Below, piece after piece: positions 1-8,806 of a stretch of DNA of 8,806 nucleotides. Source of the stretch: a virus. Taxonomy: Duplodnaviria > Heunggongvirae > Uroviricota > Caudoviricetes. The notes beneath the pieces were generated by a model, which saw nothing but the letters and a program-made list of their open reading frames with translations, was not told where the DNA came from and ran no database searches. Position 1 is the first letter of the stretch. Each line of letters begins with the position of its first letter. Location of the stretch: the IMG/VR virus record IMGVR_UViG_2711768006_000005, one strand, 5' to 3'. Position numbers and translations under genes: made by a program.

Positions 1-83
1 AGGGACAGCTGATAGAAACAGAAGCCACTGGAGCACCTCAAAAACACCATCATACACTAAATCAGTAAGTTGGCAGCATCACC
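1..83 (-). mobile_element. IS1: IS1 terminal segment (outer ~83 bp including the left inverted repeat); body of the element lies beyond the left edge of the window
   Basis: Reverse complement of 1-83 reads GGTGATGCTGCCAACTTACTGATTTAGTGTATGATGGTGTTTTTGAGGTGCTCCAGTGGCTTCTGTTTCTATCAGCTGTCCCT, which I recognise from memory as the IS1 left end (IRL GGTGATGCTGCCAACTTACTGAT). Terminus at position 83, 15 bp from the stop of the adjacent head gene. Confidence 0.85.
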
Positions 84-98
84 TCATTCGTCTGTTCC

Positions 99-605
99 TT
101 AAATCTTCCAGGAAATTTCTGCATTGCCGTCAGCATCACCGGCACCTGTGAATTCAGCGTTGGTCAGCACCACGTTTTTGCCACTGACTGACGTGGACAT
201 GAATCCACCCAGCGGCACTTTGATGGATTCATCAGTGGAGACGACAACGTATACCGGATCGCCTTTTTTGATAGTGCTGGCATCAAAATCAGAACCGAGA
301 TTAACGGTCACGTAGCCACGCTTCATGGCGTCGCCCGGGAAGTTCTTGCCTGTTCCCACCTGGCGAACCATGTCCGGCTGCGACGTGGTCGGATAAGGGC
401 GCACGTAGATCCCCTTCACCTTGTCTGCGGTATCACCATCTGCCAGCGGCACGAAAAAACCGTCATCATCGTATTTACCAGCCAGGCCATAGGCAGCGAA
501 GGCGTTATCGGATTTAAGGACCACCGGTTCGACGGTTAAGTCCTGCGGGCGAGAGACAGCCCCGGCAATGCCAACAGGCATCCGGTACAGAAATACATTA
601 TTCAT
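99..605 (-). CDS. Small phage head-associated structural protein (168 aa), possibly decoration/cement-like; function not established
   Basis: Intact 168-aa ORF with ATG at 603-605, only 3 nt after the stop of the upstream gene (609-611), consistent with translational coupling in a head operon. Position immediately after a scaffold-like gene. No motif I can name with certainty. Confidence 0.65.
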   Translation of the reverse strand: MNNVFLYRMPVGIAGAVSRPQDLTVEPVVLKSDNAFAAYGLAGKYDDDGFFVPLADGDTADKVKGIYVRPYPTTSQPDMVRQVGTGKNFPGDAMKRGYVTVNLGSDFDASTIKKGDPVYVVVSTDESIKVPLGGFMSTSVSGKNVVLTNAEFTGAGDADGNAEISWKI

Positions 606-608
606 TTT

Positions 609-1829
609 TTACCCTTTACGGTTTGCCCAGAATTCAGCGTTTTGTTTGTTCAGGGAAGCGATACTGGTCATGCCCATGTTTAGGCGCTGTGCATCGCCGG
701 TGGTGGCGCGGGTGTTTCGCCCTTTGGCAACCTCAGACACGGCATTAAACGCCATGTCGACCGATTGTTTCGGTAATTTGCGGATATCCGCATCACCGAC
801 TATCTGGCGAACCAGCGTTTTGTCAGCAGAAGCCAGAACCTCGCGTTTGAACGCGGTCGGTTTCATCTTACGGCTCAGATCGATACCCGGAACGATAACT
901 TCGGCACGCCAGGCTGAGTCACCAGTAATCGTGGTTTCCTCTTCATCGTCCTCGCCGTCACCGGTCGGATTATCGTCAGGCTTATTATCGTTATCGCCCG
1001 TGGCATTTCTTTCCAGCTTAGCCAGCAGGGCTTTCAGTAATGTTTTGAGGTCATCATCACTGTCGCCGGTTGGATCTCCGCCCATCTCTGGTGCTTTGTC
1101 CGGTAGTGGTTGCTGCGGGGACAGGTTGATGTTGAGATTAACGCCCTGCGGCAAATCCCCCTCATCTCCTGTAACCGATGCGGGAGCCGACTCCACCAGT
1201 TCGTTCATGGTGTCGGCATCTCCTGTCTTGATGGCCGCACGCATGCGGTTCCACCAGTTTTTCTTTTGATTTGCCATTGTGTCTCTGTCTCCAATTGCAC
1301 AACGATTTCCGGCTCTGCCTTTAGGGACAAGAGCCACATGGTTTCCGGTAATATCGACCTGCTCGGCTTTACCTGGCTCGGTCTGCTCGTACTCCGCGTC
1401 ATAGCCGCACGACACTTCGCGCAGGCCATCTTCGATAAGCTGAATGGCGCTTTCGTCTTTGACGATAAGGTCAGCCAGCATCAAATCAGACTGCTCACCC
1501 GTCCCGCGCCGGACATTCTGGAGGTGCCCGACAGCAAGCTCTTTCCAGTTCTCGGGATTTACCAGCCGCACATTCCCGTTTTCATCTTCAGGATGCAGGA
1601 TCGTGATGCTCATCCCTTCGAATGAGGCAAGCGTGGCCGGATGGAATACCTGCTCAGGAGAACGCGTGACGACTATTTCACCGAACTTATCGGGTTTCAG
1701 TTTTGGCAGGTCATCAGCACCATAGAGCTGCTTACCTGTTCGTCCTATCGGCACGTCTTTGCACAGCAACGAGCCGTCAGCCAGGCGGTATCGGGTTTCC
1801 CCGAGCCTGGTCTCAAAAAAGTATTTCAT
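609..1829 (-). CDS. Phage head morphogenesis / scaffold-like protein (406 aa), DUF2213-like by recollection
   Basis: Intact ORF. ATG 1827-1829 lies 3 nt after the stop of the MuF-like gene (1833-1835). Central acidic low-complexity tract (e.g. DSDDDLKTLLKALLAKLERNATGDNDNKPDDNPTGDGEDDEEETT) typical of scaffolding proteins. Sits between MuF-like and small head protein genes. Confidence 0.6.
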   Translation of the reverse strand: MKYFFETRLGETRYRLADGSLLCKDVPIGRTGKQLYGADDLPKLKPDKFGEIVVTRSPEQVFHPATLASFEGMSITILHPEDENGNVRLVNPENWKELAVGHLQNVRRGTGEQSDLMLADLIVKDESAIQLIEDGLREVSCGYDAEYEQTEPGKAEQVDITGNHVALVPKGRAGNRCAIGDRDTMANQKKNWWNRMRAAIKTGDADTMNELVESAPASVTGDEGDLPQGVNLNINLSPQQPLPDKAPEMGGDPTGDSDDDLKTLLKALLAKLERNATGDNDNKPDDNPTGDGEDDEEETTITGDSAWRAEVIVPGIDLSRKMKPTAFKREVLASADKTLVRQIVGDADIRKLPKQSVDMAFNAVSEVAKGRNTRATTGDAQRLNMGMTSIASLNKQNAEFWANRKG

Positions 1830-1832
1830 GGG

Positions 1833-2615
1833 TTATGCTGCCCTTTTCATTGCGAATGGAACGCGAACAAACACGATCTCTTTATAGCAGCGGCAGTTTG
1901 GCAGCTCGCCCGCGTGGCCGGTCATGCCGTCCAAAGTTGGAGGTGAATCCCAGCGGACGAATTTACCTTTCATGTGATCGTGGGAATCTCGGACATCGCC
2001 ATCATCGGCTGTACGCCAAATATAACCATCCGAGCCAATAGCTATCGCTCGGGCCATATCCAGCGCGCCCGTTGCTCTTCCCAGTTCCGTTCGGGCAATC
2101 AGATCGGCCCTAGACTTAGCAACATCGCCGGTAGATGCAATCTCTTTAGCAAACTGCTCCGCCCGACCACCGGTGACAACAGCCTCTATCGCTTTGTTCT
2201 GGATGTCGTACACCCTGTCTGCGGCCTCGAGAGGCAGAGATTTGATGTACTTGACCTGTTCGGCGATGATGGATTGCATCACCTGGCCCACAGGAGCGCT
2301 TTCCACAAGATTGCGGAGCTCGCGACTGATGTTCTTGCTGTGTTGCCGCCAAACTTTCTCGTTCTGCCGGGTTAGGTCCGCAGTAAAGTTTTCCGCGACC
2401 TTTGTCGCCCAGGGGGTGATGATTTCACTGTAACGCTCCAGCGCCGCAATAATTTCCGTGATACTGTCATTTGAACCATCGTAGCGACCATTTACGATGT
2501 CTCCGACCGCCCTCGCTATCCTGCGTAGGCTGGTTCGATACCGGATTTCCGCCTGACGGCTCCTGCGGTTCGTCATCAGGTTCGCCGATGCCGGGCGGCG
2601 CTTCATCTTCGGCAT
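1833..2615 (-). CDS. Phage minor head protein, Mu F-like / SPP1 gp7 family (260 aa as given by the first ATG; true start uncertain)
   Basis: C-terminal region ...WRTADDGDVRDSHDHMKGKFVRWDSPPTLDGMTGHAGELPNCRCYKE resembles the conserved Mu F-like head-morphogenesis domain. Follows the portal gene as in Mu/SPP1-type head modules. The first ATG (2615) would overlap the portal 3' end by 149 nt, so the start may be an internal ATG (2606 or 2576) or a non-ATG codon. Confidence 0.75.
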   Translation of the reverse strand: MPKMKRRPASANLMTNRRSRQAEIRYRTSLRRIARAVGDIVNGRYDGSNDSITEIIAALERYSEIITPWATKVAENFTADLTRQNEKVWRQHSKNISRELRNLVESAPVGQVMQSIIAEQVKYIKSLPLEAADRVYDIQNKAIEAVVTGGRAEQFAKEIASTGDVAKSRADLIARTELGRATGALDMARAIAIGSDGYIWRTADDGDVRDSHDHMKGKFVRWDSPPTLDGMTGHAGELPNCRCYKEIVFVRVPFAMKRAA

Positions 2616-3933
2616 TCTCGATGTCCTCGTCGGTAATGGATGCCCCGATGCCGGTTACGTCAGAATTTTCTCGCAAATCAGTCATAGCGGCTTTCAGTGT
2701 CATCAGACCATCACCCAGCGCCGTACTGATTGCGTTGGTGGTGTTTAACGCCACCGTTGAGCGATCGACATCAGACATTTGCCAGAGCGGGTTAAACTCA
2801 AACGTGAAATCGTCCGGCAGCGGCTTGCCAAGTTCCGAACGATGCATGATGTCCAGTATCCGCCGCACCGGAAGACGTAAACGCCTCTCCTGCAACGAAC
2901 TGATGCGATCGTAATAGTTGGCAAGGTCTGCATCACCGGTAGAAAATCCTTTCGGGGACTGTCCGAACAACCGCACCAGTGGGATACCAACAGCGCCACT
3001 AATCTGTTCTACAAACTGCGAAAGGATGTCATCCAGACCACTGAAGCTGTACTGATGGGTTTCAAACTTATCCCGCGAGTCCATGAGCGTCATGCCTTCA
3101 TTACTCTGGAACTGTCGAATCAGGTCGATATTCTTCAGCAACGCTTCATACGCAGGACCACCAAGTGCGATAAGCTCGCGTAGCTTCTCCACGCTGTAGG
3201 TACGCAAATGCGCCTTGTAGACCAGCTGCGCCGCGCCGACAGTAGCGCTGTCGAACGCGGTAAGACGATCCCAGATACGCTCTACAACCGACATTCCCCA
3301 TTCGTTCTCGGTCATCTTCTGCTGAAATGGCAACGTGACGCCATCAAAGCGAATCAGGCGACTGTGATGAATGCGCCAGGCAGGAATTCCCGTTGCTGTG
3401 GTCACCACATCGTAAAACTCAGGTTTACCCAGGTCCGGCCCCATATCTTTAATGCGGCGGGTCAGTGCCGGGTCGACCATCCAGCGGTCGAGCGGGAGAA
3501 TCCCCTTAAACTTGCCCTTACCGATGGTTTCGGGTCGCAGCGGGGTCATTGGTGCCTACCCCTCAATCATGATGAAACCCACCGCGCCGCCGTAGAGGCG
3601 CGACCATTTCAGCACGTCATTCAGCGCATCCCAGATTTGCAACTCATCCAGTTGTGATTCGAGAATGCCACGATCTTTTGCATCAATTTCCGAAGTGATG
3701 CGAATGCCTTTGCGGGTCATATCATCCGGGATAGCATCGACTGCTTCGCCGATGATCTAGGATGAACGATAGGACCATTCCACCAGCATGCGGTTACGAC
3801 TGGTGAAATTAGCCCGGTAGGTGGATGCTGAGTGCTGGTTAGGTGTCTGCATCCCTACGCGGGCAATAAAATTCTCATAACCATCAGCTGTGGCCTGCAC
3901 AGTTCGCCGCAGGGCTTGTTTGTTTCGTGCCAT
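2467..3933 (-). pseudogene. Phage portal protein gene interrupted by two in-frame TAG (amber) codons (minus-strand codons at 3757-3759 and 3556-3558)
   Basis: ATG at 3931-3933 overlaps the terminase stop (ATGA). I translated by hand: MARNKQALRRTVQATADGYENFIARVGMQTPNQHSASTYRANFTSRNRMLVEWSYRSS-TAG-IIGEAVDAIPDDMTRKGIRITSEIDAKDRGILESQLDELQIWDALNDVLKWSRLYGGAVGFIMIEG-TAG-APMTPLRPETIGKGKF..., continuing in the same frame as the 360-aa ORF 2467-3549. Total about 488 codons, the size and position expected for a portal directly after terminase large subunit. No frameshift is needed to join the three segments. Confidence 0.75.
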
Positions 3934-5336
3934 CAGGCCTGTCTCCCCAGCTGTTCCCAGATATCCAGCGATGTATCGATTGGCGCGAAGGCCATAATGA
4001 ATGCATCAGCAACGTTTGGTGACGGTATCTCGCGTTTTGCGAGGTCTTTTTTACTTTCGACCATCACACGTCCGTTACGGTCGAAATCACGATGAGGTGT
4101 TGTCAGTTCCAGTTTCAGCTTTTCAAGCAACGGACAACGAGAATCTATGCTGATCAGCTCATCCACAGGATACTGTTCTCCGTTGTTAATGGCGTTAAAC
4201 GTATTTCTGAAACGGTCAGCCACCAGCCACCATGCCTGAGCCTTAAGATTTGCGAAAAAGTCTTTGTTGGGGATGCCGTTGTACTCGTCATCTGGCTCAT
4301 GCACACCAGCACCGGCGTTAAACCTCTGGTAATTCACACGTCGCGCGTATGCGTTCTCGCTCTTCCGGTCAGCGTTAATTTCAGAGAATTTAGCACCGGC
4401 AGACGCACCAACACCGATAGAGTCGTAAACAATATCTGCTTCACGCTCCAGCGCCGCCTGATAAGTACGCTGGCAGCTCTTCAGTAATTCATCTTCTTTG
4501 GCCTTCCATTCGTCGGCCCAGAAAACAACGGATCCGTGACGGTAAACGTTAGCGCACTTATCTGTACCACTGTCAGCCACGTCAAAGCCAATACGCTTTC
4601 TTCCACTGGGTTCGAAATTTAACGTTTTGTGCGCATCCACTGCGGCTTCTATCCAAGACAGTTTGATGATTGCCGCATCATCATCAGACTCCGGAACGCC
4701 CTCATACACATGTTTAAAACCATCCGGATCACGGCGTCGCGCCGCGTCGATAACCTTAAGCATGGTGTCAGACAGAAACGGATTTTCGTCATAGTTAATT
4801 TTGCGGATGAGAGTGCCTTCGGGCGGATCAACAACGAAGTTGCGCCAGACGAAATCAGTAACAAGTCCGGGGTTGAATATGAACCAGCATTCCGAACCCT
4901 CTTTACGGATCGTTGGCTCCAGAATTTTCCACTGGTATTCCGTCAGTGCGTGGGCTTCTTCCAGCCACAACACATCGATCCCCTCCAGTGACTTAATTTC
5001 TTCGATGTTGCGCCATAATCCATAAAAAACAAATTCCGAGCCAGTAACCCGGTTAATGATTTTGTTGTTCAGAATACGGAAACGGTGCCGCAGACCAAAC
5101 CTGTCTATCTGAATTTTGAGCAGGGTATACACCGACTCTTCGATTTTATTCTGGATCTGACGGGCACAACAAAAACGCAGGGTGTATTTATTCGACAGAA
5201 ATATGGCAATGCCAGCGGCATCCCATGATTTTGACGATGACCGACCACCATAAAGCACTTTGTTACGTGCCCGCATAGTCCAGAAACTACGTAAAGCCGG
5301 ATTCAGCGTCGGTTTGGATGTCAGAGTAGAAGTCAT
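3933..5336 (-). CDS. terL: Terminase large subunit, PBSX/Sf6-like family (about 467 aa from ATG 5334-5336)
   Basis: N-terminal P-loop-like YGGRSSSKSW, Walker B-like IDVLWLEEA, and a C-terminal half of nuclease-domain size. The ORF is open back to 5444, but the ATG at 5336 gives MTSTLTSKPTLNP... and about 28 residues before the P-loop, which I judge more typical. This start overlaps the small-subunit gene by about 50 nt. Stop TGA 3933-3935 overlaps the portal ATG. Confidence 0.85.
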   Translation of the reverse strand: MTSTLTSKPTLNPALRSFWTMRARNKVLYGGRSSSKSWDAAGIAIFLSNKYTLRFCCARQIQNKIEESVYTLLKIQIDRFGLRHRFRILNNKIINRVTGSEFVFYGLWRNIEEIKSLEGIDVLWLEEAHALTEYQWKILEPTIRKEGSECWFIFNPGLVTDFVWRNFVVDPPEGTLIRKINYDENPFLSDTMLKVIDAARRRDPDGFKHVYEGVPESDDDAAIIKLSWIEAAVDAHKTLNFEPSGRKRIGFDVADSGTDKCANVYRHGSVVFWADEWKAKEDELLKSCQRTYQAALEREADIVYDSIGVGASAGAKFSEINADRKSENAYARRVNYQRFNAGAGVHEPDDEYNGIPNKDFFANLKAQAWWLVADRFRNTFNAINNGEQYPVDELISIDSRCPLLEKLKLELTTPHRDFDRNGRVMVESKKDLAKREIPSPNVADAFIMAFAPIDTSLDIWEQLGRQA

Positions 5337-6051
5337 TGAGGTCACGCTCTCCATTGCCATCATCAATACCTGCATCACGGCGAAGACGATCAGCCTCCAG
5401 AGACACCTTATCAGTGGCGGCCTTGCGGTAGGCTGTATCAGCAAATATTTTTCCTACCGTCGCAAGCGTGCCAACGATGGACTCAATACGAACTGTATTG
5501 CGCATCATTGCTTTCTCGGCGGCGCTGATATTTTCAATCAGCATCTTCCTTTCCTGGTCCCCATTAGCATCTTCCAGCGACACCAACCACCGACCAATAT
5601 TCTCTGCAGCGACAAGGTTGTTAGCACGAAGGCGAAATAATTCGTCCTCGAGCGTCAACGCTTTAGCGTCCTCTATCACCTCATCTTTGAGCAGAAGGCG
5701 ACGGGCATAACCACCGTGTTTTAATGCCTGCTGGTTACCGGGTTGGAATGGGTTAGTCGGGGGATCGGTACGCATTCCGCGTATCGGTTTCGTATCCGGT
5801 GTAGATTCTGTTTTTAGTTGCGTACTTTTTTGTGTAAGGCCAGTAATGGCAGGCTTTCTGCTGGTACGCACTTTCCTTTTTTGCGTACCATTTTTGCAAA
5901 CCTGCGTACCGCCACTGCGTGCCCAACCAAGCTTTTTGGCCCTCTTCCTGATAGCCCCTTCTGTAACGCCGTATTTCTCGCCTATATCACGGAGGCTAAG
6001 GACTCCGGCCCGGTATGCCGATTCGATGGCCTCCCAGTCCGGTTTTGCCAT
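5287..6051 (-). CDS. terS: Terminase small subunit (254 aa) with N-terminal helix-turn-helix DNA-binding region
   Basis: Intact ORF immediately upstream of, and overlapping, the large terminase gene. N-terminal AIESAYRAGVLSLRDIGEKYGVTEGAIRKRAKKLGW looks like an HTH. GGAAG Shine-Dalgarno-like sequence 8 nt upstream of ATG 6049-6051. Stop is TAG. Confidence 0.7.
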   Translation of the reverse strand: MAKPDWEAIESAYRAGVLSLRDIGEKYGVTEGAIRKRAKKLGWARSGGTQVCKNGTQKRKVRTSRKPAITGLTQKSTQLKTESTPDTKPIRGMRTDPPTNPFQPGNQQALKHGGYARRLLLKDEVIEDAKALTLEDELFRLRANNLVAAENIGRWLVSLEDANGDQERKMLIENISAAEKAMMRNTVRIESIVGTLATVGKIFADTAYRKAATDKVSLEADRLRRDAGIDDGNGERDLNDFYSDIQTDAESGFT

Positions 6052-6195: not shown

Positions 6196-6248
6196 AAGTC
6201 GTATCACGGTTAAATAGCAAAGAAAAATTCACAGAAGGAAAGACATTG

Positions 6249-6758
6249 ATGGAGTGGATAAATGCTTTGATGAACTATTTTGTACTTCATCCATATCGCC
6301 TATGGGGGCTTCTTTTTATAATAGCGTTCACAAAATCCACTTTACTCATTTCGGCGATATTGCCACCAGCATCAATTATGATGGCCACTGTAATTACAGT
6401 CAGCAAGACGACTCTTTCACCATGGGAAGCTGGAATCACGGTCATGAGTGGCGCATGGTGCGGTACTATCGTTAATTACCATCTTGGTATAATAATTGGG
6501 CATATCCCTCAACTTGCATGTATAATATCAAGCCGTTCCAATACAATAGAACGGGTTCGCCTTCAGTTGCAAAATAACTCTGTGTCAATACTTTTCACTT
6601 CGCGCTTTATCGCCGTGCTGCGTTATATTGCTCCTTTGGTGGCAGGAATGTTGCAACTTCATCCAGTGAAAGTGTATACAGTGAGTCTGATTTCAGCTGC
6701 TAGCTGGTCAGCACTTTATGTTGGTAGTTTTAGCTTCGTGTTGCCTTTTTTTAGCTAA
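6249..6758 (+). CDS. DedA-family (SNARE-associated, PF09335-like) small inner-membrane protein, 169 aa, carried as an AT-rich moron
   Basis: Only convincing plus-strand gene. ATG 6249 is preceded by AAGGAA 6 nt upstream; the ORF track's 6246 start is a TTG three nt earlier. Mostly hydrophobic with several predicted TM segments. Contains DedA-like motifs GTIVNYHLGIIIG and SRFIAVLRYIAPLVAG (two Arg six residues apart followed by P..AG). Visibly lower GC than the flanking phage genes. Confidence 0.65.
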   Translation: MEWINALMNYFVLHPYRLWGLLFIIAFTKSTLLISAILPPASIMMATVITVSKTTLSPWEAGITVMSGAWCGTIVNYHLGIIIGHIPQLACIISSRSNTIERVRLQLQNNSVSILFTSRFIAVLRYIAPLVAGMLQLHPVKVYTVSLISAASWSALYVGSFSFVLPFFS

Positions 6759-6846
6759 ACTGCCCATAAAAAGCTCTTGCGAATCCAGCTTCCCCCATTC
6801 CTCTGACAACAGAATCTGATTTGAAGGATAATGAGTAAAATTACCG

Positions 6847-7317
6847 CTACCCCCCAAGGCATTGGATCCTGATGTACTCCTGAAGCATTCTCAATGCTGT
6901 CTGGTCGCTGATGATTCCGTCCCGGATACCGAGAACGTTTCGTCCAGCAACTGGAGAGAGTTCGACGGTGGCATCATTGCCCATGCCGGAGGCGCTGGAG
7001 GTTTCGGCTGAGGATGGCACAGAGCATTTTCCTTTGACGAGCACCCGACCACCATTATCAAGCTTGCGCCGAAGAGCATCATTTTCAGCTTTCGCATCAG
7101 CTAACTCCTTCGTGTATTTAGCATCGAGTGCATCAGCAGCACGCTGGCGCTGCTGCATGTCAGTAATGGTTGCGTTCGCCAGCTTCAGTTCTCTTGCGTT
7201 TTTGTCGCGCTGCTCTTTGTAGGTAATGGCGTTATCACGGTAATGATTAACAGCCCATGACAGGCGGACGATGATGCAGATAACCAGAGCGGAGATAATC
7301 GCGGTGACTCTGCTCAT
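6847..7317 (-). CDS. Rz: Rz-type inner-membrane spanin (i-spanin), copy 2, with a divergent C-terminal half
   Basis: From ATG 7315-7317, which overlaps the stop of the R remnant (ATGA): [59 protein letters not shown]... The N-terminal ~85 aa is nearly identical to copy 1 and lambda Rz; the C-terminal half is unrelated to copy 1. The ORF track shows a 12-nt longer ORF (7329). Stop is TAG. Confidence 0.8.
6891..7097 (-). CDS. Rz1: Rz1-type outer-membrane lipoprotein spanin (o-spanin), copy 2, embedded in Rz copy 2 in another frame
   Basis: 68-aa ORF wholly inside Rz copy 2 in a different frame. [23 protein letters not shown] has a signal peptide and lipobox (VVGC), followed by a proline-rich stretch [11 protein letters not shown]. 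Differs from copy 1 after the lipobox. Confidence 0.75.
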
Positions 7318-7405
7318 TGCTGCCCCCACAAACAGACTTCACGCTCAATCTCACGACGGGTCATCAGCCCTTTCCATTGCTTACCGCCAGCATATGTCCA
7401 GCGAC
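7314..7405 (-). pseudogene. 3' remnant of a second R-type endolysin gene (last ~30 codons), abutting the N run
   Basis: 7318-7405 is near-identical to 8205-8305 (the 3' end of R copy 1) and encodes ...[29 protein letters not shown]-stop. The few differences are synonymous (e.g. GGG vs GGT, CAG vs CAA). The 5' part is either missing or hidden in the N run. Confidence 0.7.
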
Positions 7406-7655
7406 NNNNNNNNNNNNNNNNNNNNNNNNNNNNNNNNNNNNNNNNNNNNNNNNNNNNNNNNNNNNNNNNNNNNNNNNNNNNNNNNNNNNNNNNNNNNNNN
7501 NNNNNNNNNNNNNNNNNNNNNNNNNNNNNNNNNNNNNNNNNNNNNNNNNNNNNNNNNNNNNNNNNNNNNNNNNNNNNNNNNNNNNNNNNNNNNNNNNNNN
7601 NNNNNNNNNNNNNNNNNNNNNNNNNNNNNNNNNNNNNNNNNNNNNNNNNNNNNNN
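7406..7655. other. Run of 250 N: unresolved or masked sequence
   Basis: Directly visible. Flanked by the repeated R/Rz sequence on the left and by the start of an unknown minus-strand ORF on the right. Confidence 1.
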
Positions 7656-7697
7656 ACATCCACGCTTACGGCAGGCACGTGGGATTAGTGATGGCAT
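7656..7697 (-). CDS. 5' end of an unknown ORF downstream of Rz copy 1 (first 14 codons, MPSLIPRACRKRGC...), continuing into the N run
   Basis: ATG at 7695-7697 preceded by GAGG 6 nt upstream. Same strand as, and 40 nt downstream of, the Rz stop. The rest is hidden by N, so length and identity are unknown. Confidence 0.3.
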
Positions 7698-7739
7698 AAA
7701 TACCTCATACCCTGCGAAATGTTTACCACGATAAAAAGG

Positions 7740-8204
7740 CTACTTAATGCACTGAGTGCGGATATACTCCTGTGCCCCTTCCAGTTGCATCTGCATCGTC
7801 ATCAGCCGCTCTCTGAGGGTGAAATAATCCCGTTCAGCGGTGTCTGCCAGTCGGGGGCTGGTTGCATTATCCACGCCGGAGGCGGTGGTGGCTTCACGCA
7901 CTGACTGACAGACTGCTTTGATGTGCAACCGACGACGACCAGCGGCAACATCAGCGCGCAGAGTTTCATTTTCAGCTTTCGCATCAGCTAACTCCTTCGT
8001 GTATTTAGCATCGAGTGCATTAACATCACGCTGTCTCTGCTGCATGTCAGTAATGGTTGCGTTCGCCAGCTTCAGTTCTCTTGCGTTTTTGTCGCGCTGC
8101 TCTTTGTAGGTAATGGCGTTATCACGGTAATGATTAACAGCCCACGACAAGCAGACGATGATGCCGATAACCAGAGCGGAGATAATCGCGGTTACCCTGC
8201 TCAT
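7740..8204 (-). CDS. Rz: Rz inner-membrane spanin (i-spanin), copy 1, lambda-like
   Basis: [134 protein letters not shown]... closely matches lambda Rz as I recall it. ATG 8202-8204 overlaps the R stop (ATGA). Stop is TAG. Confidence 0.9.
7802..7984 (-). CDS. Rz1: Rz1 outer-membrane lipoprotein spanin (o-spanin), copy 1, embedded in Rz in another frame
   Basis: 60 aa, [60 protein letters not shown]: signal peptide, lipobox VVGC, proline-rich segment. Near-identical to lambda Rz1 as I recall it. Confidence 0.85.
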
Positions 8205-8698
8205 TGTTGACCCCACAAACAGACTTCACGCTCAATCTCACGACGGGTCATCAGCCCTTTCCATTGCTTACCGCCAGCATATGTCCAGCGACATAGCTGG
8301 TCACATGCGCCTTTGATATAGCCCTGGTTTATTTTGCGAAGAAGCGTCGATGTTCTGAAATTGCCAGCGCCCACGTTGTAAACGAACGAGTAAAGAGCGC
8401 CGCGCGTTGTTTCCGGTATATCGACTTTGATGTACGGGTTAATTTGTCTGGCGACAGTGGCAAGGTCTTTATTCAGGAGAGCTTTGCATTCTGCTTCGGT
8501 ATACGTTTTACCAGGCATGATGTCTTTTCCGGTGTGTCCGTGACATACAGTCCATACACCAATGATATCTTTGTATAGTATGTAGCTGACACCTTCCAGA
8601 CCATCGTTACCACCTGGGCCAGTGATTAACACAGATGCTATAGCAACAGCCCCGCCACCAATAGCAACTGCAACAGCCTTGCGTAATGATGGCGACAT
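8201..8698 (-). CDS. R: SAR endolysin (phage-21 R-type lysozyme, T4-lysozyme-like fold), 165 aa
   Basis: N-terminal Gly/Ala-rich weakly hydrophobic segment [20 protein letters not shown] typical of a signal-arrest-release domain. Catalytic E-x8-D-x5-T present in [18 protein letters not shown]. Overall close to P21 R / DLP12 RrrD-type lysozymes as I recall them. GAGAGG Shine-Dalgarno-like sequence upstream of ATG 8696-8698. Confidence 0.9.
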
Positions 8699-8720
8699 TA
8701 TTCACCTCTCGCAGCCTTAC
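8699..8720 (-). pseudogene. 3' remnant (last ~7 codons, ...KAARGE-stop) of a phage-21-type pinholin (S21-like) gene, truncated by IS2
   Basis: Minus strand reads GTAAGGCTGCGAGAGGTGAATAATG: ...K A A R G E then TAA overlapping the R start (TAATG). I recall the S21 pinholin ending ...RRKAARGE. Everything upstream is IS2 sequence. Confidence 0.55.
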
Positions 8721-8806
8721 TAGACTGGCCCCCTGAATCTCCAGACAACCAGTATCACTTAAATAAGTGATAGTCTTAATACTAGTTTTTAGACTAGTCA
8801 TTGGAG
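8721..8806 (+). mobile_element. IS2: IS2 left end (IRL and transposase-promoter region); element continues beyond the right edge of the window
   Basis: 8721-8806 TAGACTGGCCCCCTGAATCTCCAGACAACCAGTATCACTTAAATAAGTGATAGTCTTAATACTAGTTTTTAGACTAGTCATTGGAG matches my recollection of the IS2 left terminus, including the internal palindrome TATCACTTA-AA-TAAGTGATA (8753-8772). Confidence 0.8.

Follow-up and report, generated by a model that had tools for sequence, protein, structure and literature searches.

Two in-frame TAG codons interrupt the portal gene of an IS-bounded Shigella sonnei prophage remnant

Gene content and boundaries of the remnant

The window, by which is meant the whole stretch of 8,806 nucleotides analysed here (IMG/VR record IMGVR_UViG_2711768006_000005), appears to be what is left of the late genes of a cryptic E217/Pam3-like (SEN34-like) prophage of Shigella sonnei, lying between an IS1 and an IS2 element. 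Besides the portal gene, which is described in the next section, it contains the following features.

1..83, IS1 end, 100% identical to a second IS1 copy in locus L005, with insA starting just beyond
99-605, minus strand, cement-protein gene, intact, of the same length as in relatives
609-1829, minus strand, DUF2213/Pa193_gp24-like gene, intact, of the same length as in relatives
1833-2615, minus strand, MuF-like head morphogenesis gene, intact, of the same length as in relatives
3933..5336, minus strand, terL, PBSX-type large terminase, 467 aa as annotated in relatives, intact, its TGA overlapping the portal ATG
5287..6051, minus strand, gene of a 254-aa protein upstream of terL, presumed to be the small terminase (terS), intact, with a TAG stop
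6246-6758, plus strand, DedA/VTT-domain membrane protein gene, 170 aa, between Rz and terS
7406..7655, run of 250 N (scaffold gap or masked stretch), parting a repeat-switched piece from the true locus
8721..8806, IS2 end, a 100% match to the IS2 end in locus L001

The mechanical reading frame of terL reaches further upstream, to a TTG at 5444, while the 254-aa presumed small terminase matched no family in Pfam or NCBIfam. The genes of the window other than the portal have the same lengths as in intact relatives, and the statement of the preliminary description that the head genes around the portal are intact is therefore correct inside the window, but it does not extend to the complete S. sonnei genomes. 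In these, IS1 follows straight after the cement gene and is succeeded by the chromosomal genes for a lactonase, a LysR regulator and an aconitase, whereas the E. coli relatives continue after the cement gene with the major capsid, connector and tail genes. IS1 in S. sonnei thus takes the place of all that lies beyond the cement gene, the major capsid and tail genes among it, while IS2 interrupts the holin gene, next to the lysozyme gene on its upstream side, and further IS elements upstream of the holin replace early regions. The prophage is dead on several counts, and its erosion is a general one to which the portal lesions contribute; given the losses caused by IS1 and IS2, they do not decide the viability of the element.

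The DedA/VTT-domain gene is conserved in every copy of the prophage, whether from E. coli or from Shigella, and is likely a moron or cargo gene. It also holds position 6530, the sole S. sonnei-specific substitution outside the portal.

The lysis region of the window contains an assembly switch. Positions 8211-8806 (IS2 end and lysozyme) are identical to the S. sonnei locus, while the segment from 8210 down to 7656 carries Rz and the start of an HNH endonuclease gene from a different, HK97-like prophage and is 97.7% identical to a prophage in E. coli FDAARGOS_944; beyond the run of N, the sequence re-enters the true locus at the 3' end of the lysozyme gene. The complete S. sonnei chromosomes have one lysozyme-Rz pair at this place. 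The two Rz copies reported in the preliminary description are thus explained by the 250-N gap and a repeat-induced assembly switch, without a real duplication, the second Rz belonging to another prophage type. The ORF at 7314-7697 is spurious, as it spans the 250 N and is absent from the records. The 158-aa Rz ORF gave no match in exact look-up, for which its GTG start is the probable reason.

The portal reading frame and its identity

The portal frame runs on the minus strand from an ATG at 3933-3931 to a TGA at 2469-2467 and comprises 488 sense positions and the stop. Its features, together with the three ORFs into which a mechanical ORF list divides it, are given below.

2467..3933, minus strand, portal pseudogene (DUF1073 / PF06381 Phage_portal_3, TIGR01555 HI1409 family), ungapped against WP_000113499.1 and matching the Pam3 portal
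3757..3759, minus strand, amber 1, codon 59, TGG (Trp) to TAG, G-to-A on the coding strand at 3758, where relatives read TCC TGG
3556..3558, minus strand, amber 2, codon 126, CAG (Gln) to TAG, C-to-T at 3558 in the context GGGCAGG, where relatives read CAG
3011, minus strand, third S. sonnei-specific portal change, codon 308, GCA (Ala) to GTA (Val), C-to-T, from the alignment to relatives
3933-3757, minus strand, portal ORF 1, 58 aa
3720-3556, minus strand, portal ORF 2, 54 aa, starting at Met72
3549-2467, minus strand, portal ORF 3, 360 aa, starting at Met129

The two TAGs (3759-3757 and 3558-3556 in the direction of reading) lie 174 and 375 nt from the portal ATG, both distances being divisible by three, and no frameshift occurs between the segments. 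The preliminary description had reported exactly this arrangement, and it holds after the coordinates and the frame were re-read and the gene was aligned, ungapped, with the intact 488-aa gene. ATG codons follow both stops, that of Met72 36 nt after the first TAG and that of Met129 9 nt after the second. Because the frame of 1,467 nt aligns without gaps with the intact 488-aa gene and differs from it at three nucleotides, two of which make the TAGs, the joining of the three segments in one frame is, on the strength of this alignment, not a chance alignment of ORFs.

All three S. sonnei portal changes (3011, 3558 and 3758) create a TAG trinucleotide on the coding strand, by CTGG to CTAG once and by GCAG to GTAG twice, the one made by the change at 3011 being out of frame. 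This three-fold creation of TAG is probably a coincidence of G:C-to-A:T changes falling beside AG or GG.

Several lines of evidence identify the gene as a portal gene. PF06381 (Phage_portal_3) is recorded on the window's own fragments of 54 and 360 aa, and an intact relative with three residues different matches TIGR01555 (HI1409 family) with 255 bits against a cut-off of 196 (E = 1e-75). The portal translation with its stops reverted matches the Pam3 portal 8hds_A over residues 15-413 (E = 2e-37), with Trp and Gln in the aligned Pam3 portal at the sites of Trp59 and Gln126, and the portal also matches the E217 gp19 portal 8fvh (E = 1e-14). The position of the gene is that of a portal as well, directly downstream of terL, with the terL stop and the portal ATG overlapping at 3933, and followed by the MuF, DUF2213 and cement genes.

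Orthologues in E. coli (H18, H59 and H63) are labelled by PGAP as 'anti-CBASS protein Acb1 family protein' or 'DUF1073 domain-containing protein'. Judged by the homology to the solved portals of Pam3 and E217, these orthologues are misleadingly named where the Acb1 label is used.

Ancestral codons, distribution and reading of the stops

In a megablast search, 382 of the 5,426 complete E. coli genomes had the portal gene, the best three being 99.8% identical. The window aligns with these three closest E. coli prophages over 7,322 nt with zero gaps and 13-14 mismatches (99.8% identity), and the portal in all three is an intact 488-aa CDS (WP_000113499.1). Three mismatches fall inside the portal, namely G/A at 3758, C/T at 3558 and C/T at 3011. 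The codons TGG, CAG and GCx at positions 59, 126 and 308 are likewise found in E. coli P4, S. flexneri, vB_EcoM-689R2 and the Salmonella phage SEN34. As every relative compared reads TGG and CAG, both ambers are, by sequence comparison, derived single G:C-to-A:T transitions. The preliminary description had proposed an alignment to intact homologues as a check on which sense codons occupy the two sites, and the answer is Trp (TGG) and Gln (CAG). Its suggestion of C-to-T changes in CAG codons consequently applies to codon 126 but not to codon 59, where TGG became TAG at a Dcm site.

The same allele occurs throughout S. sonnei. All ten complete S. sonnei chromosomes inspected read TAG, TAG and GTA at codons 59, 126 and 308; in nine of them, which stem from independent projects, the portal region (1,467 nt) is 100% identical to the window, and in the tenth (L014) it differs solely by a 1-nt gap. 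Over 7,405 positions, the window differs from complete S. sonnei chromosomes at two, both in Rz. Exact look-up of the 360-aa fragment returned 2,576 blocks of the public collection, including the complete chromosome HE616528.1, and the sources name it Shigella sonnei, as in UniProt Q3Z426_SHISS (Ss046). In searches with 61-mers centred on each TAG, neither TAG was found in any of the 5,426 complete E. coli genomes; the matches, in 142 and 273 genomes, all have at least one mismatch, and none reaches 99% identity. The double-amber allele is thus fixed in what is a natural, clonal pathogen.

These observations bear on whether the TAGs are sequencing or assembly errors. The record is a draft, with a gap of 250 N and a repeat-induced mis-join in the lysis region, which lends some plausibility to such error, but its portal agrees with complete chromosomes to the extent just described, and the fragment proteins are present on more than 1,000 contigs; error as the source of the TAGs can in practice be discounted. 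Since the same allele is seen across independently sequenced S. sonnei, namely in ten of ten complete chromosomes and in the 2,576 blocks of the collection, both base-calling error and descent from a laboratory amber-mutant stock, which had been raised in the preliminary description, are excluded.

One record might place the second amber outside S. sonnei. The protein EGI96254.1 of S. dysenteriae 155-74 is the 360-aa fragment with Ala308, and, judged from the protein record, may represent a TAG126 allele in that species. The 360-aa ORF of S. dysenteriae Sd197 has a different cause and is not a shared amber, as it is due to an IS1 at portal nt 308, and codon 126 there is CAG.

It could further be supposed that the TAGs are read through by a suppressor tRNA of the host or a phage, or that the element derives from an amber-mutant phage propagated on a suppressor host, a full-length portal still being made in either case. 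Both stops are indeed TAG, and a Gln-inserting suppressor would give back the wild-type residue at codon 126. Against this, TAG terminates terS and both Rz frames in the window, TGA ends terL, lysozyme and portal, and TAA ends the others, so that TAG is neither avoided as a terminator nor enriched across the genes, and in-frame TAGs are confined to the portal. ARAGORN found no tRNA in the window and no tRNA with a CTA anticodon in 12 related loci, among them the 21-kb S. sonnei loci and the E. coli tRNA arrays; across the window and the S. sonnei and E. coli loci, the tRNAs are limited to Met/Ile, Arg, Thr, Gly, Val and Lys. The conclusion of the preliminary description that the codon has not been reassigned agrees with both the terminators and the tRNA search. 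Moreover, the allele occurs in natural clinical isolates from many laboratories, related prophages and phages have sense codons at both sites, and a restored portal would be useless in a remnant without major capsid and tail genes. Readthrough is accordingly regarded as exceedingly improbable, and the TAGs would be read as stops, with full-length portal not made.

The E. coli relatives carry an array of four tRNAs (Met/Ile-CAT, Arg-TCT, Thr-TGT, and Gly-TCC or Val-TAC) between a Q-like gene and the holin gene, of which S. sonnei keeps just the first tRNA, beside an IS. The arrays were considered as a source of a phage suppressor tRNA and rejected, as those of the relatives comprise Met/Ile-CAT, Arg-TCT, Thr-TGT, Gly-TCC, Val-TAC and Lys-TTT, with no suppressor. 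The positions of the tRNAs in the loci are as follows.

Locus L002, 985-1295, tRNA array in an E. coli relative
Locus L003, 1376-1683, tRNA array in an E. coli relative
Locus L008, 2320-2393, tRNA site

Mutational origin, decay of the prophage family and comparison with known systems

When the substitutions were polarised with E. coli and S. flexneri, four were derived on the S. sonnei branch in 7.3 kb (6530, 3758, 3558 and 3011), all of them G:C-to-A:T. Codon 59 lies in TCC TGG ATC, which contains the Dcm site CCTGG (gene nt 173-177), and the mutated base, G176 changed to A, pairs with the inner C of CCTGG, the cytosine methylated by Dcm. There are three Dcm sites in the portal gene, giving six methylated positions among 794 G/C positions. 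Codons 126 and 308 both changed from GCAG to GTAG, and neither is a Dcm site. We take dcm to have been present and active in the S. sonnei ancestor, as is general in E. coli and Shigella, and with this assumption deamination of 5-methylcytosine at the Dcm site is the most likely route from TGG to TAG at Trp59, while the Gln126 amber and Ala308Val, the third transition, would have arisen by ordinary C-to-T change. Amber hotspots classically arise by deamination of 5-methylcytosine at CCWGG (Coulondre, Miller et al. 1978, reviewed in PMC12606429).

The concentration of changes in the portal calls for some caution. Three of the four S. sonnei-specific substitutions fall in the portal, which is 20% of the 7.3 kb, and two of these three are nonsense, compared with about 6% expected per G:C-to-A:T change (49 of the 794 possible changes in the portal, or 6.2%, give a stop, and 28 of the 49 give TAG). 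Under uniform neutral mutation, this excess of nonsense in the portal has a probability of about 1e-3 at face value, and the placing of three of the four changes in 20% of the sequence is nominally improbable too; both come from a post hoc count of four events at a locus picked for looking odd. Shigella reference genomes have no fewer than 199 pseudogenes apiece, and across an S. sonnei collection 719 CDS are inactivated in one place or another (Hawkey et al. 2020, PMC7373316). The excess over the neutral model is not compelling, because it is a post hoc pick from a genome with hundreds of pseudogenes, and little can be read into four events, one of them at a hotspot, at a locus selected as odd among the many pseudogenes of Shigella.

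Exact look-ups also returned a 125-aa N-terminal fragment (stop at Gln126 only), a 417-aa protein (stop at Trp59 only) and a full-length protein with Val308, which could be taken as single-amber intermediates or as homoplasy. These were traced to seven Logan contigs, L020-L026 (SRR17313989, SRR1185302, ERR6005742, ERR6005182, ERR6006227, SRR1184664 and SRR1185284), which show nearly every combination of the three portal sites. When complete S. flexneri loci are set beside them, each contig passes back and forth between the S. sonnei and the S. flexneri state at all the sites that vary, several times per kilobase. These sites are 1540, 1681, 2647/2631, the three in the portal, 3859 and the deletions of 7 bp in terL and of 17 bp in the cement gene. 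Two contigs also break close to a variant, L024 starting 30 nt before codon 59 and L021 ending 1 nt before codon 126. The apparent intermediates, each on one to three contigs, are thus rejected as chimeric assemblies with a sonnei/flexneri patchwork, which imply mixed or cross-contaminated read sets. The 125-aa, 417-aa and full-length Val308 proteins are phantoms that such contigs have introduced into the protein collection, and chimeric short-read contigs should not be used for ordering mutational events.

Other lineages of the prophage family have decayed in different ways. S. flexneri retains an intact 488-aa portal ORF, while its terL carries an IS and a 7-bp deletion and its cement gene a 17-bp deletion. 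S. dysenteriae Sd197 has the IS1 inside the portal gene, and in E. coli FDAARGOS_943 the lesions are an IS2 within terL and a stop inside the MuF gene. The decaying lineages do not converge on the portal, since the other lineages lose different genes. In the S. flexneri chromosomes (L027-L032), the portal lies at 6673-8139 of the loci, the chromosomal site is a different one, near dcuC, pagP, cspE and crcB, and an IS is found shortly after the major capsid gene.

A further explanation is that inactivation was selected, the loss of the portal or of its N-terminal fragment being favoured in the S. sonnei ancestor as the product expressed from a cryptic prophage was toxic or was sensed by a portal-sensing defence of the Avs4 type; on this view, the second amber would have been selected for shutting off product that leaked through or was re-initiated. 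The share of lineage-specific substitutions that fall in the portal, and of nonsense among them, speaks for this explanation, and Met129 and Met72, so close behind the stops, make re-initiation products conceivable. However, the count is the post hoc one of four events discussed above, and one of the ambers coincides with a known hotspot of mutation; other genes are lost, and the portal ORF is kept, in S. flexneri and E. coli FDAARGOS_943; a defence gene was not seen in the loci; and the contigs that suggest recurrent mutation at the amber sites are chimeras. Selection is for these reasons considered very unlikely.

Ordinary neutral decay, one of the options offered in the preliminary description, is very probably the explanation, in which two spontaneous transitions killed the portal of an IS-eroded cryptic S. 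sonnei prophage. It accords with single transitions in an IS-eroded remnant and with sense codons in all relatives. According to this reading, the portal was inactivated by two independent spontaneous G:C-to-A:T transitions, and all three portal changes would have been fixed before the common ancestor of the sampled S. sonnei. The prophage may have been non-functional already, or have been becoming so, in which case there would have been no selection against the stops.

The portal fragments themselves are already known, having stood in public S. sonnei annotation for years (UniProt Q3Z426, Ss046), while a search of the literature on nonsense pseudogenes in S. sonnei prophages found nothing specific to the portal locus. 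The ORFs of 58, 54 and 360 aa, which gene callers and older annotations of S. sonnei enter individually as 'bacteriophage proteins', all belong to a single dead portal gene. Beyond annotation, the locus matters little; it offers a neat natural case of an amber at a Dcm site and shows that the copies of one prophage family in S. sonnei, S. flexneri, S. dysenteriae and E. coli carry unlike lesions.

Pseudogenes and IS-eroded cryptic prophages of Shigella are reportedly described with the Ss046 genome by Yang et al. in 2005. The portal resembles these, where genes that have ceased to be needed are lost through nonsense changes, IS insertions or deletions, and there is no difference in kind; what is particular here is two nonsense changes in one gene, without an IS or indel. 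The Trp59 change is also similar to the amber hotspots of lacI (reviewed in PMC12606429), where G:C-to-A:T change at the methylated inner C of CCWGG gives TAG. The lacI ambers come from CAG in CCAGG on the coding strand, whereas in the portal CCTGG is read on the other strand and TGG becomes TAG. The Gln126 amber differs from the Dcm hotspots of lacI, as it is not at a Dcm site.

Phage late genes in which TAG is read as Gln, with a phage suppressor tRNA, are said to have been reported by Borges et al. in 2022. The portal is similar to these in having in-frame TAG in a late structural gene, once at a Gln position, but it has two TAGs in one gene, genuine TAG stops in its neighbours and no suppressor tRNA found, its relatives all use sense codons, and the host has the standard code.

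In gene content, the remnant resembles the myovirus head module of the E217/Pam3 type and of SEN34 (Brunovirus), which has the same order of terS, terL, portal, MuF, DUF2213, cement and major capsid genes. The portal DNA is 97-98% identical to that of vB_EcoM-689R2, -611R5, -683R1 and -606R2 and 85% identical to that of SEN34. SEN34 and the E. coli phages are complete genomes with an intact 488-aa portal, whereas the window is a remnant that has been truncated and whose portal gene is dead.
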